In this document: piece after piece, positions 11,507 to 47,968 of the stretch | How positions within the stretch are numbered: the first letter of the stretch is position 1 | How the letters are laid out: every line of letters starts with the position of its first letter | Assembly: GCA_016191525.1 (NCBI GenBank) | Contig: JACPOK010000038.1 | Span: 100,973-164,972, forward strand | Origin: Burkholderiales bacterium | Lineage (GTDB): Bacteria; Pseudomonadota; Gammaproteobacteria; Burkholderiales; Burkholderiaceae_C | DNA: 64,000 nt | Reading direction: 5' to 3' | Position numbers and translations under genes: made by a program | The notes under the pieces: model-generated | Database searches by the model: none | The model's input: the letters and a program-made list of their open reading frames with translations, nothing else | Told to the model about the DNA's origin: nothing

Positions 11507-13651
11507 GTGAGCGAGCAAGAAGACCAGGGCCTGAAAGAGGCAGCCGTCCCCCTCTTTGACATCGTCGTCAGGATGCCGCCCGGCGCGCGGCTCGAAGACG
11601 TGGCGCGGCTCGCGCAGGCCGCGGGCGTGCCCGCCGAGCGGGTCGAGAAACTGGTCACGGTTCTGCGCAGCGTTCCGCAGGCCAAGATCGGCGCGAGCGT
11701 ACCGCGTGACCGCGCGGACCGCGCCAGGGAACAATTCGGCAAGGCCGGGCTGATCGTCGAAATCACCCCCGTCCTCACCGTCCAGCACATGGTGACGGGC
11801 GCCTTCGACGGCATGCACGAATGCCCCGGCTGCAAGACCCGCGTGGTGCTCCCCGAGAACAGGCAATGCCCGAACTGCGGCGTGTTTGTCGACAAGGTGA
11901 CCGACGACGTCCTGCTGCGCCGCAAGATCATGGAGCAGGAAAAAAGCCAGATGGACTTCCGGTCGGCGCGCGACGCCAAGGACACCGAGAAGCGCATCCG
12001 GGAAAGCCTGGAAGCGTCGATACGGGCCAAGGTCCGCGCCGAGCTCGAAGAAAAGTACGGCGGCAAGAAAGGCGGCTTCCTGGGCCGCTTTGCCGGCGCC
12101 GCGCGCATCGCCGGGGCCGGCTTGCTGGTGGCGGTGGCTTTTCTTGGGGGCAAGGGAACAACGGCCTCGGGCTTTTCATGGTCGGAGGCCACCAACTGGG
12201 GGCCCTTCAAATCAGCGAACGGTTCCAAGACCGCCGACACGGGCAAGATACTTGATGCCGCAGGTGCGGCCGGTGCCGCCGGCGCAGGTGCCAAGGGTGC
12301 CGCGGGCGGGGGGACGGCCACGGCCGAGGCAGGCAGCACGGGCGATGTGGATATCGACGATCCGCTGATCCAGGCCGCGGGCGGCAAGAGGATTGGCGCC
12401 AAGGGCCTGACCATCGAACAGGCCGTGGGCGCCGCGCAGGCGCTGGGCAAGGCGGTTGGCAACAACACGATCGACCGCGCCATGAACGGCGGCGGGCCTG
12501 CCGGTCCGGCGGGCGCTGGCGGGGCGGGCGCTGGCGGGGCGGGCGCGGGCGGGTCAGCGGGCGGGTCAGCGGGCGGTGGCGCCGTCGCGGGCGGGCCGGC
12601 CGACGGCACCGCCGGCGGGGCGGCGGGCGCGGAAGCACCGCCGCAGCTCAAGGCCCTGCTTTCACTCGAATTCGCCAAGCAACTGGCCGAAATGGGCCAG
12701 GTGCCGCGGGCCATGGAAATCATGCGCGCGCTGAAGGGCTCGCCCAAAGTCACGGGTGACGCGGCAGTGGCTTCGGCCGCGCGGATCGCTGACCTGGAGA
12801 TCAAGGCCTGGGCCACCCAGGCGCAGGGCGAGGCACGCGCCAAGCAGGTGGCCGAGGGCCTGATGGCCGAGGCCGGCGCCCTGAGCGACGCGGCGGAGCG
12901 CACCCAGGCGCTGGTACGCGTCGGCGTGATCCTCAGCCGCAGTGGCCGGCTGCCTTTCGAGACGGTGCGCTCGTTCTTCACGGCCGCCAGTGAATCGCTC
13001 AAGGCGGTGTCCGACCAGCGCGTTGCCGCCGCCACGCTCAGCGACTGGGCCGTCGGCCTGGGCGAGGCCCTGATGGCCGAGGCAACCAACCGCGCCCGCA
13101 CGGGCGCGTGGGCCAAGGCCCAGGCAGCGGGCGGGCAGGTCGAGGGCCTCGCCAAGCAGCTTTCGGACGCCTCCTCGCAGGCCCGGCTCGCGGCCATCGA
13201 TTACCAGGTCAAGCAGCAGCTGGGCCAGCAGGACAAGTCGACGCAAAGCATGGAGACGGCGCTCAAGCAGGTGGCCAAGGCCGGCGGCCTGGCCGAGCGC
13301 GCCGCCCTGTTGCGCGCCGTCGGCCAGCTCTCGGGGGGCGCCGCCACCGAGAAGATGCAGGCGGCAGCCACCGAGCTCGGAGCCCAGCTGGCCTCGAAAA
13401 CAGGCACCGAAAAAGCTCGCGGCCTGGCCCAGCTGTCGCTGCTGTATGCCGACGCGGGCCTGCGCGGCAAGTCCTCGGAGTTCAGCAAGATGGCCCAGTC
13501 GTCGTCGGGCCTGAGCCCGGCCGATTCGGCTTCCGTGAATGCGGACCTGATCGTGCGCAGCGACCTGGCTTCCGCCCGCAACCTGCAAAGCGTGGGCCTG
13601 TACGCCGAGTGCGAGGCGGTGCTGCAGCGGCTGGCGGGCTACCTGCTGTAG
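11507..13651 (+). CDS. Hypothetical membrane-anchored protein: double CxxC zinc ribbon, coiled coil, TM, Gly-rich linker, Ala-rich helical C-terminus
   Basis: GTG start with GGAG SD; CPGC...CPNCG; hydrophobic segment AGAGLLVAVAFLGG; codon usage consistent with coding. Confidence 0.8.
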   Translation: MSEQEDQGLKEAAVPLFDIVVRMPPGARLEDVARLAQAAGVPAERVEKLVTVLRSVPQAKIGASVPRDRADRAREQFGKAGLIVEITPVLTVQHMVTGAFDGMHECPGCKTRVVLPENRQCPNCGVFVDKVTDDVLLRRKIMEQEKSQMDFRSARDAKDTEKRIRESLEASIRAKVRAELEEKYGGKKGGFLGRFAGAARIAGAGLLVAVAFLGGKGTTASGFSWSEATNWGPFKSANGSKTADTGKILDAAGAAGAAGAGAKGAAGGGTATAEAGSTGDVDIDDPLIQAAGGKRIGAKGLTIEQAVGAAQALGKAVGNNTIDRAMNGGGPAGPAGAGGAGAGGAGAGGSAGGSAGGGAVAGGPADGTAGGAAGAEAPPQLKALLSLEFAKQLAEMGQVPRAMEIMRALKGSPKVTGDAAVASAARIADLEIKAWATQAQGEARAKQVAEGLMAEAGALSDAAERTQALVRVGVILSRSGRLPFETVRSFFTAASESLKAVSDQRVAAATLSDWAVGLGEALMAEATNRARTGAWAKAQAAGGQVEGLAKQLSDASSQARLAAIDYQVKQQLGQQDKSTQSMETALKQVAKAGGLAERAALLRAVGQLSGGAATEKMQAAATELGAQLASKTGTEKARGLAQLSLLYADAGLRGKSSEFSKMAQSSSGLSPADSASVNADLIVRSDLASARNLQSVGLYAECEAVLQRLAGYLL
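12509..12577 (+). repeat. In-frame tandem repeats (3 x 15 bp, 2 x 12 bp) encoding a GAGGA/GGSA linker
   Basis: GCGGGCGCTGGCGGG x2 plus a variant; TCAGCGGGCGG(G/T) x2. Confidence 0.75.
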
Positions 13652-15991: not shown

Positions 15992-16864
15992 ATGGGACTG
16001 AGGCTGAAGTTCAACCTGGTGTTGATCGTGGTGTTTCTCGCCGGTTTCGGCGCGGCGGGATTCGTCTCGCGCCAGCTGCTGCAGGAGAACGCCCGCGACG
16101 AGGTGATCCGCAACGCGCGGCTGATGATGGAGGCCGCCACCTCGGTGCGCACCTACACCGTCGACCAGATCCGGCCTCACCTGATCAAGCAGCTGGAGGA
16201 AGTGTTCCTGCCCCAGACGGTGCCGGCCTACGCGGCCACCGAAGCCATCAACGAGCTGCGCAAGAAGTACCCCGACTACAGCTACAAGGAAGCCACGCTC
16301 AACCCCACCAACCCGCGCGACCGCACGGCTGACTGGGAGGCCGACCTGGTCAACAAGTTCCGGGCCAGCGCCGACATCAAGGAAATCGTCTCGGAGCGCC
16401 AGTCGTCCACCGGCCGCACGCTGTTCATCGCCAAGCCGATCCAGATCACCAACGCCGCCTGCCTGCAGTGCCACACCACCGCCGCCATGGCCCCGCCCAC
16501 CATGGTCAAGATCTACGGCGAGGCCAACGGCTTCGGCTGGAAGCACAACGAAATCGTCGGCACCCAGCTGGTCACGGTGCCCATGGACCTGCCGCTGCGC
16601 AATGCCGACCGCGCGTTCAACACCTTCATGGCGTCGCTCGCGGCGGTGTTCGTCGTCGTCTTCATTGTGCTCAACATGATGCTCAGCTGGATGATCATCC
16701 GGCCGATCCGCCGCATGTCGCAGTCGGCCGACAAGATCAGCACGGGCGAATTCAACGAGCCTGAGTTCAACGAAAAGGGCCGGGACGAAATGGCCGTGCT
16801 GGGCAGCTCGTTCAACCGCATGCGCCGCAGCCTCGAAAAAGCCATGCAGATGATCGGCGAGTAA
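15992..16864 (+). CDS. Membrane sensor: TM - periplasmic DUF3365/Tll0287-like heme-c domain - TM - HAMP, no output domain
   Basis: YSYKEATLNPTNPRD, CLQCH heme-c motif, IIRPIRRMS...DEMAVLGSSFNRM HAMP, then stop. Confidence 0.82.
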   Translation: MGLRLKFNLVLIVVFLAGFGAAGFVSRQLLQENARDEVIRNARLMMEAATSVRTYTVDQIRPHLIKQLEEVFLPQTVPAYAATEAINELRKKYPDYSYKEATLNPTNPRDRTADWEADLVNKFRASADIKEIVSERQSSTGRTLFIAKPIQITNAACLQCHTTAAMAPPTMVKIYGEANGFGWKHNEIVGTQLVTVPMDLPLRNADRAFNTFMASLAAVFVVVFIVLNMMLSWMIIRPIRRMSQSADKISTGEFNEPEFNEKGRDEMAVLGSSFNRMRRSLEKAMQMIGE

Positions 16865-16889
16865 GGCACGGGCCGGGAGCGCACCACGG

Positions 16890-19220
16890 ATGGCTGAACG
16901 CCCCACTCCCCCGCCCGCGGCGCCGGCGGACGCCGCCGCGCTTCCCGCGGGCTACCGCATCCACGAGTACCAGATCGAGCGTTCGCTGGGCGGCGGCGGC
17001 TTCGGCATTACCTACCTGGGCACCGACAGCAACCTGCAGCTGCCGGTCGCCATCAAGGAATACTTTCCCAGCGACCTGGTCACGCGCGGCCCCGACCAGA
17101 GCGTGAGCGTGCGCGGCGGCGCCAGTGACGAGGCAAAGGCAACCTACGAATGGGGGCTGGAGCGCTTCCTGGACGAGGCCCGCGCGCTGGCCACCTTCCG
17201 CCACCCCAACATCGTGCGGGTGCTGCGCTACTTCCGCCAGAACGGCACCGCCTACATCGTGATGGAGTACGAGTCGGGCCTGTCGCTCAAGCGCTGGCTG
17301 CCGCAGAACACTCCCCTGTCGCAACGCGCCCTGCTGTCCATCGTCTACCCGCTGCTGGACGGGCTGGAAGCCGTGCACAAGACGGGGTTCCTGCACCGCG
17401 ACATCAAGCCCGACAACATCTATGTGCGCGCCGACGGCACGCCGGTGCTGCTGGACTTCGGCGCGGCCCGCCGCGTCACGGCCAACAAGGACATGACCAA
17501 CATCGTGAGCCCGGGTTTCGCGCCGTTCGAGCAGTACCACTCGCAAGGCAACCAGGGCCCCTGGACCGACATCTATTCGCTGGGCGCGGTGATGTACTGG
17601 ATGACCACCGGCAAGAAGCCCATGGAGTCCGCCTCCCGCGTCAAGACCGACGGCATGCTGCCGGCCTCCGGACTGGCGGAAGCCAGCGTGTTCGGCGCCA
17701 CCCTGCTGCAGGCCATCGACTGGGCGCTGCTGCCGGACGAAGGCAAGCGGCCCCAGACCGTGGGGCAGTTCCGCGCCGCGATCCAGGGCTCGGAAAAGAC
17801 CGGGGCGGCATCCGCGCTGGACTTTGACCTGGAGGGCGACGGCCCCGCGCTTTCCGCCGCGGGCGATGCGCCTTCCGTGCCCGGCCGCGTCACGGGCCCC
17901 TCCGGCGCCCTGCGCAAGAACCTGCTGTGCACCATCATGTTCCTGGACCTGGTGGGTTATTCCATCCGCTCGGTGGACGACCAGGTGGCGCTGAAGAAAC
18001 TTTTCAACGAACTGATCGGCAAGGCGCTCAAGGGCGTGCCCGAGGACACCCGCATCTCCATCGACACGGGCGACGGCGCCGCCATCTGTTTCATGGGCGA
18101 CCCCGAGGAGGCGCTGCAGTCGGCATTGCTGCTGCGCGACCTGCTGGGCCAGCGCTACGGCCACGCCCTGTCGGTGCGCATCGGGCTGCACATGGGGCCG
18201 GTGCGCGTCATCGCCGACATCAACGACCGCGTCAACGTGGTGGGAGACGGCATCAACGTGGCGCAGCGGGTCATGGATTTCGCGCAGGCCAACCAGGTGC
18301 TGGTTTCGCGTTCGTACTACGACGTGATTTCGCGCATCACCGACGACACGGCCGACATGTTCCAGAACCTGGGCCAGTACGAGGACAAGCACGGGCGTAT
18401 GCACGAGGTCTATGCCGTAGGCACCCCGAACGCCAACACCACCCGGCGGGAAGGCCCGTCCACCGGCTACACCCAGACCCAGCCGATGCGCACCATCAAG
18501 CCGCTGGACGCCGACGAGGTGATGGAAGTCGAGGCCGAGCTGGCCCGCCTGATCGGCCCTCTGGCCCGCGTGCTGGTGCGCAAGGCCCGGCCGCTGGCCG
18601 CCAGCCTGCAGGAGTTGCGCGACGCGCTGGCACCCACCATCCAGGAGCCGCGCGCGCGCGAAGCCTTCATCGCGGGCATCCACAGCTCGAGCCGGCCCAC
18701 CCACAGCCATCCGGTCAGCCGGCCCGCCGGCAACAGCAGCAAATCGCCGACGTCCAGCCGCACCAGCCAGTGGGGTGGCCTGGGGCCCAGTTCCCAAAGC
18801 ATGCCGCTGACCTCGCGGCCCCAGCCCAGTCAGCCCAGCCAGCCGCGCAGCCAGCCCATGAGTCAACCCATGAGCCAGCCTGCCAGCCAGCTGCAGCGCG
18901 GCCAGCTGACCCAGCGCCCGCAGGCCGTGCAGCGCAGCCAACCCATGAGCCAGCCCATGAGCCAGCCCATGAGCCGGTTGAACCGTGGCGCGGACTCCAC
19001 CCGCCAGGTGGACATTCCACCCGAGGAAATGGTGATCGTGGAGCACACGCTCAGCAAGTTCATCGGGCCGATGGCCAAAATGCTGATCCGCAAGGAAATC
19101 GGCCGTTGCATCGACTTCAAGGAATTTGCCGCGGCCATCGCCGCCAATATCGACCACCCCGGCCAGCGCGAGGCGTTCGTGCAGGCGCTCAAGCGGGGCC
19201 TGCCCAAGCGGCAGTTCTGA
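16890..19220 (+). CDS. Hanks-type Ser/Thr kinase fused to a class III nucleotide cyclase and two C-terminal repeat domains
   Basis: Kinase: GGGGFG, VAIKE, HRDIKPDN, DFG, DIYSLG. Cyclase: FLDLVGYS, TGDG, RIGLHMGP, GDGINVAQR. Confidence 0.88.
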   Translation: MAERPTPPPAAPADAAALPAGYRIHEYQIERSLGGGGFGITYLGTDSNLQLPVAIKEYFPSDLVTRGPDQSVSVRGGASDEAKATYEWGLERFLDEARALATFRHPNIVRVLRYFRQNGTAYIVMEYESGLSLKRWLPQNTPLSQRALLSIVYPLLDGLEAVHKTGFLHRDIKPDNIYVRADGTPVLLDFGAARRVTANKDMTNIVSPGFAPFEQYHSQGNQGPWTDIYSLGAVMYWMTTGKKPMESASRVKTDGMLPASGLAEASVFGATLLQAIDWALLPDEGKRPQTVGQFRAAIQGSEKTGAASALDFDLEGDGPALSAAGDAPSVPGRVTGPSGALRKNLLCTIMFLDLVGYSIRSVDDQVALKKLFNELIGKALKGVPEDTRISIDTGDGAAICFMGDPEEALQSALLLRDLLGQRYGHALSVRIGLHMGPVRVIADINDRVNVVGDGINVAQRVMDFAQANQVLVSRSYYDVISRITDDTADMFQNLGQYEDKHGRMHEVYAVGTPNANTTRREGPSTGYTQTQPMRTIKPLDADEVMEVEAELARLIGPLARVLVRKARPLAASLQELRDALAPTIQEPRAREAFIAGIHSSSRPTHSHPVSRPAGNSSKSPTSSRTSQWGGLGPSSQSMPLTSRPQPSQPSQPRSQPMSQPMSQPASQLQRGQLTQRPQAVQRSQPMSQPMSQPMSRLNRGADSTRQVDIPPEEMVIVEHTLSKFIGPMAKMLIRKEIGRCIDFKEFAAAIAANIDHPGQREAFVQALKRGLPKRQF
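18849..18975 (+). repeat. 12-bp in-frame repeats encoding SQPM
   Basis: AGCCA(G/A)CCCATG-like units in two clusters. Confidence 0.8.
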
Positions 19221-47206: not shown

Positions 47207-47968
47207 ATGGCAAAAGGCTACCGACTCACCGCTTCGACGGGCATCCACAAGGGTGACCGCGAATACCAGCAGGACCAGATTGCGCTGATCAGCCATCCGC
47301 GCATCACCGGCTGCGTGATGGGCGTGGTCGCCGACGGCATGGGCGGGCGCAGCGGCGGGCGCAAAGCCTCCGACCAGGTCATGATGACCGCCAAGCAGCT
47401 GTTCGAGCGCTACTCTCCCGAACACGACGACGCGCCCTCCCTGCTCAAGCAGATCGTGCAGGAAGCCCACATCGTCATCAAGCTGACGGCCATTTCCGCC
47501 GAGCAGGAGCCGCACAGCACGCTGGCCGTGTTCCTGATCAACCCGGCGGGCGACTGCCACTGGGTCCATGCGGGCGACTCGCGCATCTACCACTTCCACG
47601 GCAGCAAGCTGGTCAAGCGGACCATGGACCATTCCTACGTGCAGACGCTGGTGGACAAGGGCGAGATCACCGAGGAAGAAGCCAACGTGCACCCGCAGTC
47701 CAACATCCTGATGGGCTGCCTGGGCTCGGAGGACGATCCGCCGGCAGACATCCACTTCATCCCGCAGCTGCGGCCGGGCGACGTGCTCATGTCATGCAGC
47801 GACGGCGTGTGGCACTACTTCAGCCCGAACGAGCTGGGCTCGGTGCTGTCGTCGCTCTCGCCGCGCGAGGCCACGGAGTTCCTCATCGAAAAGGCGCGCT
47901 CCCGCGCCCGCGGCGGCGGCGACAACCTGTCGCTGGTGATCGTCAAGCTGGAACCGCTGGAAAGCTGA
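47207..47968 (+). CDS. PP2C-family Ser/Thr protein phosphatase
   Basis: QQD, VADGMGG, HAGDSR, CSDG, GGDN. Confidence 0.9.
   Translation: MAKGYRLTASTGIHKGDREYQQDQIALISHPRITGCVMGVVADGMGGRSGGRKASDQVMMTAKQLFERYSPEHDDAPSLLKQIVQEAHIVIKLTAISAEQEPHSTLAVFLINPAGDCHWVHAGDSRIYHFHGSKLVKRTMDHSYVQTLVDKGEITEEEANVHPQSNILMGCLGSEDDPPADIHFIPQLRPGDVLMSCSDGVWHYFSPNELGSVLSSLSPREATEFLIEKARSRARGGGDNLSLVIVKLEPLES

Follow-up and report, generated by a model that had tools for sequence, protein, structure and literature searches.

A predicted two-protein heme-c receptor in which an output-less HAMP sensor would dock a soluble kinase-cyclase protein through DUF8082 modules

The 64,000-nucleotide stretch of Burkholderiales DNA analysed here (the window; contig JACPOK010000038.1, positions 100,973 to 164,972) contains two plus-strand open reading frames (ORFs), gene A (15992-16864, 290 aa) and gene B (16890-19220, 776 aa), which are separated by 25 nt, lie in different reading frames, and very probably encode the two parts of one transmembrane receptor held together by docking of C-terminal modules of gene B onto gene A. 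A first-pass annotation of the same sequence had described the first gene as a DUF3365-like domain with a CLQCH motif, followed by a HAMP domain and then a stop, and the second as a Hanks kinase without transmembrane (TM) segments joined to a class III cyclase and two helical repeats; the ORF list bears out the gene positions and the 25-nt gap, Pfam finds the predicted domains with nothing beyond the HAMP, and Pfam, hydropathy, and a hidden Markov model (HMM) of the repeat agree on the make-up of gene B. Its proposal that the two proteins make up one receptor, with the soluble kinase of the adjacent gene receiving its signal from a heme-c/HAMP sensor that lacks an output, is supported by conservation of the pair, by a natural fusion of sensor and kinase (P0307), and by the binding of a homologous pair from Pseudomonas azotoformans through the repeats. 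The helical repeats, to which it gave no role, are the key docking element, and its statement that such a system was uncharacterised is outdated, one of this kind having been characterised in a gammaproteobacterium in 2026 (bioRxiv 10.64898/2026.05.25.727664).

In the arrangement that we propose, gene A would be a dimeric inner-membrane sensor with heme c covalently held at CLQCH, and its cytoplasmic part would consist of a HAMP four-helix bundle only. Gene B would dock on this HAMP via its two C-terminal DUF8082 four-helix modules, one per HAMP subunit, so that one gene B protein would be present per receptor dimer, and docking would tether the Hanks Ser/Thr kinase and the class III cyclase beneath the receptor. 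A ligand on the heme would shift the HAMP conformation, and phosphorylation of the HAMP by the kinase would rise as it does in the homologue, with S250/T251 at the equivalent place. In the window's lineage a cyclase domain appears to have been inserted between the kinase and the docking modules, and the same receptor therefore probably also controls cyclic-nucleotide synthesis; the product would feed a genome-wide cyclic nucleotide monophosphate (cNMP) network.

Gene A, which is single copy in the 5.0-Mb host genome, ends eight residues past the HAMP, and no Pfam domain follows it. The stop is native to the gene, because 52 diverse homologues (35-66% identity) all end shortly past the HAMP, some 8-15 residues beyond it. 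C157, C160, and H161 of the heme motif are invariant in this alignment, and S250 and G252, which with T251 form an S250-T251-G252 sequence at the AS1/connector junction, are at least 90% conserved. Exhaustive comparison with 1.84 billion representatives of clusters formed at 50% identity gives 502 sensor relatives at E <= 1e-30, and the form of about 290 aa aligned end to end dominates the best 150 of these, which were inspected. The output-less architecture is thus family-wide and the C-terminus conserved, and we reject a frameshift or truncation that hides an output domain; the frameshift or sequencing error which the first-pass annotation had allowed for, by which the HAMP would have been cut off from a missing output, is not found. 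Longer Tll0287-HAMP relatives with GAF-HisKA, hybrid-kinase, PP2C, GGDEF, or TPR/pentapeptide outputs do occur, and in P0307 (588 aa) a sensor 46% identical to gene A is fused directly to a Hanks kinase, a Rosetta-stone link between the two. The best PDB sequence match of the gene A HAMP is the HAMP of Af1503. The only cysteines of gene A are C157 and C160 of the CXXCH motif, and there is thus no axial Cys; absence of this residue marks the NO-binding signalling type, and Cys/His ligation the redox class (10.64898/2026.02.01.703092). Because it has no axial Cys we assign gene A to the ligand-binding (nitric oxide, NO) class and not to the redox class, and predict that it carries covalent heme c and binds NO.

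The kinase of gene B (Pfam Pkinase match at residues 27-249, E 2.5e-36) is PknB-like, with catalytic residues that are invariant in 65 homologues and a domain that is well folded in the AlphaFold2 (AF2) model; it has no PASTA domain, and no TM segment is found in gene B, where the maximum Kyte-Doolittle value (KD19) is 1.28. Identities as a MADS6, BREX PglW, or lanthionine-synthetase kinase were considered from NCBIfam and rejected, as the scores are far under the cut-offs and reflect kinase-domain similarity only. The C-terminal part contains two repeats of about 70 aa (at about residues 531-602 and 701-772) with 21 identical positions between them and conserved IGPxAR-helix motifs at residues 555 and 725, and AF2 predicts two confident four-helix bundles, at residues 541-595 and 711-770, with disordered linkers between. 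The name of the repeat, PF26309 or DUF8082, is taken from precomputed domain tables of homologues. An isolated module is modelled with a predicted local distance difference test (pLDDT) score of 84 and helices at 11-25, 28-39, 43-53, and 57-65; in the module alignment G26 and A29 are invariant and L21 and P27 at least 90% conserved, and the motif lies between the first two helices. The linker that separates the modules is of low complexity (SQPM/SQP) and is encoded by tandem DNA repeats at 18821-18975 of the window (period 12, AGCCAGCCCATG x3.3; period 9 x3.9), of which Tandem Repeats Finder (TRF) locates the period-12 array at 18936-18975; its length varies widely among orthologues. Short DUF8082 matches on long contigs were considered as possible stand-alone proteins and rejected as frameshift fragments of kinase genes in error-prone assemblies, and our searches found no true stand-alone DUF8082 protein.

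The role of the modules can be predicted from the P. azotoformans receptor, whose DUF3365 domain is defined as Cache_heme in both preprints on the subject (10.64898/2026.05.25.727664; 10.64898/2026.02.01.703092); proteins with the Cache_heme-TM-HAMP architecture are abbreviated as CHH. That receptor binds NO with a slow off-rate and is without the axial Cys of the redox class (10.64898/2026.05.25.727664; 10.64898/2026.02.01.703092). It binds the kinase of its operon with a Kd of ~90 nM, in a manner that needs the C-terminal region of the kinase with its modules, at a stoichiometry of one kinase for each receptor dimer; in a cryo-EM map at 3.47 A two pseudo-symmetric four-helix bundles are seen, each of which puts a conserved helix (IGPLARFLVRKSLN or IGPIARIVVSRALR) under one of the HAMP subunits, and Thr256 of the HAMP, where the AS1-AS2 loop begins, is a substrate of the kinase and is phosphorylated more rapidly with NO bound (10.64898/2026.05.25.727664). 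The window's proteins resemble these in having a Cache domain in the periplasm with a CXXCH heme-c site and without an axial Cys, two TM helices, and an output-less HAMP at the end; a downstream gene for a PknB-like kinase with VAIK, HRD, and DFG motifs and no TM segment; and two C-terminal four-helix modules with disordered linkers and IGP(L/I)AR...V..(K/R) helices, the first of which, IGPLARVLVRKA, is identical at 10 of 14 residues to the HAMP-contacting helix IGPLARFLVRKSLN. The window's pair can thus be placed as a member of the CHH kind, and by analogy we infer that this Ramlibacter pair binds as the P. azotoformans pair does and that NO is the ligand of gene A. The differences are the class III cyclase of about 170 residues between kinase and modules in gene B, the longer inter-module linker (about 105 residues versus about 30), the absence of a PP2C gene from the window operon (an orphan PP2C gene is 28 kb away), and the betaproteobacterial host; the two preprints make no mention of cyclase-bearing or cyclase-only partners, of type VI secretion system (T6SS) contexts, or of STAC domains.

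The two genes are conserved as a pair to an extent well beyond chance. We surveyed Tll0287 domains in 200 genera of the host's family, 48 of which have a match, and ran the repeat profile on 201 family genomes; a further 80 named loci came from Burkholderiales, Rhodocyclales, Usitatibacter, Accumulibacter, and a few metagenome-assembled genomes (MAGs) labelled Myxococcaceae, Methylomirabilis, and Acidiferrobacteraceae (search alignment of 12 sequences). A kinase-cyclase gene lies directly 3' of the sensor in all eight close genera; in 19 of 20 more distant ones the sensor is followed by a divergent kinase, mostly about 30-35% identical, with the same C-terminal repeats and without the cyclase; and of the 98 loci that could be assessed, 94 have a partner immediately after the sensor. 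The check on gene-pair conservation that the first-pass annotation had called for therefore comes out in favour of the pair. Matches to the repeat HMM in the host genome are confined to gene B, and across 101 loci 175 of 177 module matches are on the same strand as the sensor and no more than 3.2 kb downstream of it. Of the 201 family genomes, 41 contain both a full-length CHH sensor and the repeat, one the sensor only, two the repeat only, and 157 neither (Fisher p = 3.7e-39); in the lone sensor-only genome the partner is cut by the contig end, and six genomes in which the Tll0287 protein bears its own output are without the repeat. The two repeat-only loci (L101 and L102, in genomes G082 and G194) are syntenic with the window through a tesA/ybbA flank and contain a kinase-less gene of cyclase and module in which the metal Asp is mutated, which looks like reductive decay of the partner following loss of the sensor.

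The output enzyme of the partner varies. There are 57 loci in which the partner is a kinase with two repeats, 19 (the window included, plus one truncated) in which it is a kinase and cyclase with two repeats, and 12 (plus one truncated) in which it is a kinase-less protein of about 360-390 aa with a cyclase and repeats; four of the cyclase-only partners are confirmed above the Pfam cut-off. Partner type is strongly clustered on the sensor tree, with 17 changes compared with 41 in shuffles, and none of 200 shuffles was as low. The window's clade (99% support) comprises 16 loci with kinase, cyclase, and repeats, one with a truncated kinase-cyclase gene, and two of the kinase-less type (L068 and L076), both of which are nested beside a Ramlibacter locus of the three-part type; the kinase has therefore been lost in these two and the cyclase and one repeat retained. 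Together these distributions indicate that the docking module, and not the kinase, is the invariant feature of the partner, and that the enzyme is exchangeable. We note also that six kinase-only loci (L001, L071, L074, L077, L080, and L083) have a separate class III cyclase gene upstream of and divergent from the sensor, some of which encode the canonical Lys/Asp residues of adenylate cyclases. The Acidiferrobacteraceae MAG locus L090 contains a second DUF8082 pair on the strand of the sensor, some 2 kb before it, besides the downstream cyclase and module gene, which would give two partners for one receptor. Genome G176 has six module matches in four places, and at one of these (L104, contig C26) an extra kinase and DUF8082 gene without an adjacent sensor precedes a large Rhs/YD-repeat-like ORF.

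Some observations weigh against the docking arrangement as we have drawn it. In module 2 the contact helix agrees with that of Pseudomonas at just 4 of 14 positions. An adjacent partner is missing at four loci (L009, L093, L096, and L098); L009, the only such locus of the family survey, is in a genome that encodes a repeat-bearing kinase elsewhere. The evidence for binding, stoichiometry, NO, and phosphorylation comes from a preprint on a gammaproteobacterial partner with a kinase only, so that its extension to the window would be by analogy. Lastly, the equivalence of T251 to Thr256 and the depth of orthology to P. azotoformans are putative.

What the cyclase contributes is less clear-cut than the docking. 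Pfam Guanylate_cyc matches residues 348-486 at 30.3 bits against a cut-off of 21.9, and the sequence matches and model point to a genuine class III cyclase fold. Both metal-binding Asp residues are present (D353 in FLD and D395 in TGD), as are the RIGLH Arg and, within GINVAQR, the Asn and Arg of the transition state, and all six catalytic positions outside the substrate pair are intact in the window's gene B; the transition-state Asn is kept in 28 of 33 cyclase-bearing sequences and the transition-state Arg in 34 of 39. Although overall identity among partners is only 45-60%, GDGINVAQR and xDTGDGAAxCF hardly vary, whether or not a kinase is present. The substrate pair departs from the canonical ones, with Ile (I/L/V/M in the family) and an invariant Asp beside it at the Lys position, and Asn at the Asp/Cys position; the canonical pairs (Lys/Asp for ATP, Glu/Cys-type for GTP) are absent from gene B, and the cyclase product is not predictable. 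Class III cyclases with non-canonical substrate residues can nevertheless be active, Rv1900c being an example. Kinase-less partners of cyclase and repeats show that a cyclase can couple to the receptor without a kinase, and we see the domain in gene B as an independent, probably active output, with the chance that it is both active and under the control of the receptor standing at about even.

Several points count against such an output. The Pfam score is low (30 bits) and the substrate-specifying residues are non-canonical; a metal Asp is substituted in 4 of about 17 orthologues of the window's clade (L023, L026, L027, and L032); and the cyclase is clearly degenerate in the Methyloversatilis clade, as it is also in Myxococcaceae-type partners. 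The metal-Asp substitutions and the Methyloversatilis clade imply that catalysis is under non-uniform constraint. Moreover, class III cyclases work as dimers, and one partner per receptor dimer would leave each complex with only one cyclase domain; either the complexes would have to associate in pairs, or cyclase activity belongs to undocked dimers.

It is conceivable, if somewhat improbable, that the cyclase-homology domain is silent and serves for dimerisation or as a scaffold that joins two kinase domains or two receptor dimers, as pseudo-cyclases do elsewhere. The weak Pfam score, the missing canonical substrate pair, and the four metal-Asp substitutions would fit such a role, as would retention of the domain where it is fully degenerate (L039, L040, L049, L078, and L092), the presence of 10 other class III cyclase domains in the genome, and the stoichiometry of one partner per receptor dimer, which makes a dimerising domain plausible for receptor clustering. 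Against this, the window protein retains all six catalytic positions apart from the substrate pair, near-invariance of GDGINVAQR and xDTGDGAAxCF is typical of an active site and not of an interface, partners in which this domain is the only enzyme are widespread, and substrate residues outside the canonical pairs are compatible with class III activity, as in Rv1900c.

A serial scheme, in which a kinase activated by the receptor would turn on the cyclase of its own chain through phosphorylation, strikes us as unlikely. It corresponds to the suggestion of the first-pass annotation that the kinase gates cyclic-nucleotide synthesis, which we find unsupported: there are 12 kinase-less loci with cyclase and docking module, four of them above the Pfam cut-off, two of the 12 (L068 and L076) are nested in the window's clade, where they kept cyclase and module after loss of the kinase, in the Methyloversatilis clade it is the kinase that persists and the cyclase that is degenerate, and the identified substrate of the homologue's kinase is the receptor HAMP. 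The order of kinase then cyclase does recall membrane guanylyl cyclases with a kinase-homology domain, the two domains are in one chain with a 36-residue disordered linker (AF2) that could carry phosphosites, the genome encodes a second cyclase/kinase fusion (REC-cyclase-kinase, C8:530881-532980), and at several kinase-only loci a cyclase is encoded by a gene of its own, upstream and divergent. The silent-scaffold and kinase-gated readings overlap with that of an active cyclase, and the three are not mutually exclusive. That the genes are mere neighbours, or that gene A is an uncoupled, truncated pseudogene of a histidine kinase or chemoreceptor, as might be supposed from homologues auto-annotated as 'methyl-accepting chemotaxis protein' or 'protein-histidine pros-kinase' and from longer Tll0287-HAMP proteins with GAF-HisKA, GGDEF, or PP2C outputs, has hardly any probability left and is for practical purposes refuted by the conservation data: the end-to-end architecture of about 290 aa with its conserved C-terminus is widespread among representatives clustered at 50% identity, adjacency (94 of 98 loci) and co-occurrence (p = 3.7e-39) are strong, the two syntenic genomes that have lost the sensor hold a kinase-less partner with a mutated metal Asp, and binding has been shown experimentally for the homologue.

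The features of the two genes to which the reading of a docked two-protein receptor refers are collected in Table 1.

Table 1. Features of the receptor gene (A) and of its predicted soluble partner (B), in window positions.
Feature	Position	Strand	Basis
Gene A, CHH (Cache_heme-TM-HAMP) receptor, 290 aa, no output domain	15992..16864	+	ORF, Pfam, family-wide end after HAMP
TM1/signal-anchor, approx. residues 5-28	16004..16075	+	Kyte-Doolittle segment 1-30; boundaries approximate
Periplasmic Cache_heme domain (Tll0287-like, PF11845, DUF3365), residues 31-197	16082..16582	+	Pfam E 2.2e-38
CLQCH heme-c attachment motif (C157, C160, H161)	16460..16474	+	Motif position; invariant in 52 homologues
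TM2, approx. residues 207-232	16610..16687	+	Hydrophobic segment 207-240; boundaries approximate
HAMP, residues 231-282, predicted docking site for gene B	16682..16837	+	Pfam E 3.4e-14; docking inferred from cryo-EM of the P. azotoformans homologue
S250-T251 at AS1/connector junction, candidate phospho-acceptor	16739..16744	+	Position; putative equivalence to homologue Thr256
Gene B, soluble partner, 776 aa, kinase-cyclase-DUF8082 x2	16890..19220	+	ORF, Pfam, AF2 domain layout
Hanks-type Ser/Thr kinase, approx. residues 20-300, VAIK (K56), HRD (D171), DFG (D189) intact	16947..17789	+	Pfam Pkinase, motifs, AF2
Disordered kinase-cyclase linker, residues 305-340	17802..17909	+	AF2 pLDDT <50
Class III nucleotidyl cyclase domain, residues 342-512	17913..18425	+	Pfam, PDB cyclase matches, residue table, AF2 pLDDT at least 90
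DUF8082 (PF26309) module 1, predicted four-helix bundle with IGPLARVLVRKA	18510..18674	+	HMM E 1e-22; AF2 four helices
Disordered Pro/Gln/Ser-rich inter-module linker, ~105 aa	18684..19004	+	AF2 pLDDT <50; TRF; sequence
DUF8082 (PF26309) module 2, predicted helical bundle with IGPMAKMLIRKE	19020..19199	+	HMM E 2e-20; AF2 pLDDT ~95

On one side of the pair is an rlmB-like methyltransferase gene, divergent from it, and on the other an ABC-ATPase gene that converges on it. Farther upstream, at 11507-13651 (+), is a 714-aa ORF with an L7/L12-C-like N-terminal segment, a double CxxC motif, a Gly-rich stretch, and Ala/Leu-rich helices; the whole-genome HMM search gave no DUF8082 match in it, and it is unrelated to DUF8082. 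The host genome encodes 11 class III cyclase domains and 18 cNMP-binding domains. The receiver-cyclase-kinase fusion noted above lies outside the window, has a canonical class III cyclase, and directly follows a gene for a PAS histidine kinase. Three of the four PP2C phosphatases of the genome adjoin other kinases; the fourth, an orphan of 253 aa at 47207-47968 (+) of the window, adjoins none, and it is possible, as a speculation, that it is the cognate phosphatase of gene B. In two metagenomic contigs (L105 and L107) a gene for a Peptidase_C14 (caspase-like) domain with PG_binding is directly upstream of the CHH receptor.

HAMP domains have long been regarded as relays within one polypeptide only, and in the CHH/DUF8082 system the HAMP is instead a docking platform for a separate effector. 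As the module is carried by a kinase, a class III cyclase, or both, one receptor family would be rewirable to phosphorylation or to cyclic-nucleotide signalling, and the kinase-less partners (about 360 aa) offer simple targets for study of HAMP control of a cyclase in trans. The window's pair is a candidate periplasmic input, for NO or another heme ligand, to the unusually large cNMP network of its host, which is Ramlibacter-like and belongs to the Comamonadaceae. The CHH two-protein receptor is already known from the 2026 preprint, and the added cyclase is new; relative to that single published case the portable docking module, the cyclase-only partners, the T6SS linkage, and the possible STAC link represent a real but incremental advance.

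Among known systems, the domain order of gene B, with a Hanks kinase ahead of a class III cyclase-homology domain in one chain, is also that of the TOMM kinase/cyclase fusion proteins (TIGR03903). Gene B scores 62.5 bits against this NCBIfam model, compared with a cut-off of 705.75, and is not a member; the TOMM proteins, unlike gene B, are some 1270 aa in length, contain AAA/TPR regions, and have neither DUF8082 nor a CHH partner. A different parallel is provided by kinase-only relatives of the pair that lie in or beside T6SS genes (L003, L004, L007, L011, L012, and L017 in family genomes, L085 and L088 in Variovorax, and L105), with Fha/TagH directly after the kinase in most, TssL and TssM downstream, and VgrG nearby in some. 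This adjacency resembles the PpkA-PppA-Fha1 system of the P. aeruginosa H1-T6SS, with the difference that in PpkA the kinase and a periplasmic vWA domain belong to one membrane protein whereas the CHH sensor and kinase are separate proteins, and suggests that these pairs may provide a heme-sensor input to threonine phosphorylation and firing of the T6SS, with Fha as substrate. No T6SS is present in the host genome, TssM and Fha being absent, and we therefore reject a T6SS role for the window's pair.

A possible likeness of the docking modules to the STAC domain should also be noted. Af1502, the founding STAC domain, is a 68-aa four-helix bundle with LGPx(x)A between helices 1 and 2 (PDB 5A1Q), and is translationally coupled to Af1503, an Archaeoglobus fulgidus receptor with a HAMP as its sole cytosolic part (PMC4834066); in CbrA a STAC domain docks beneath the membrane domain and is a proposed coupling element (PMC13022988). 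DUF8082 is of the same size; its predicted fold is likewise two hairpins that form a four-helix bundle, and an invariant [IL]GPxA sits where helix 1 passes into helix 2. A Foldseek comparison of the module model with 350,542 PDB chains places Af1502 (5A1Q) at ranks 1 and 3, which is not significant (TM-score 0.56-0.59, probability 0.77, E 1.6), and a profile search lists Af1502 at a likewise non-significant E of 0.49, with an alignment that spans h1-GP-h2; easy matches are to be expected of small four-helix bundles. PDB sequence searches with the modules gave no significant match, in a PDB copy without the cryo-EM complex. DUF8082 occurs as a tandem pair at the C-terminus of enzymes, whereas STAC stands alone or links SLC5 transporters to histidine kinases, and neither 13 relatives nor 151 genomes of the class yielded an SLC5-STAC-histidine-kinase protein, the one candidate being a transporter only. 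We know of no demonstrated binding of Af1502 to Af1503. The pieces of a DUF8082-STAC relationship are individually weak and together coherent, and we offer only tentatively, as a rather doubtful extension, the view that DUF8082 is a portable HAMP-docking adaptor related to STAC, that CHH receptors in Bacteria and Af1503 in Archaea share an effector-recruiting module, and that a heme-c gas sensor here directly controls a class III cyclase of unusual specificity. Were the STAC link true, it would provide a function for Af1502, the partner of the most-studied HAMP model protein.

The final comparison is with the guanylyl cyclases of eukaryotes. The window's pair would share with soluble guanylyl cyclase (sGC) the coupling of heme-based gas sensing to a class III cyclase, and with the receptor (membrane) guanylyl cyclases the succession of extracellular sensor, TM segment, kinase-like domain, and then cyclase. 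It differs from both in that two polypeptides would be joined by a docking module, the heme is predicted to be c-type and periplasmic, the kinase is catalytically intact and no pseudokinase, and the substrate residues fit neither the guanylyl nor the adenylyl cyclase type. The likeness is an analogy of logic and not whole-system homology; if the scheme is true, the pair would make a bacterial counterpart to NO-to-sGC signalling that is split and spans the membrane.

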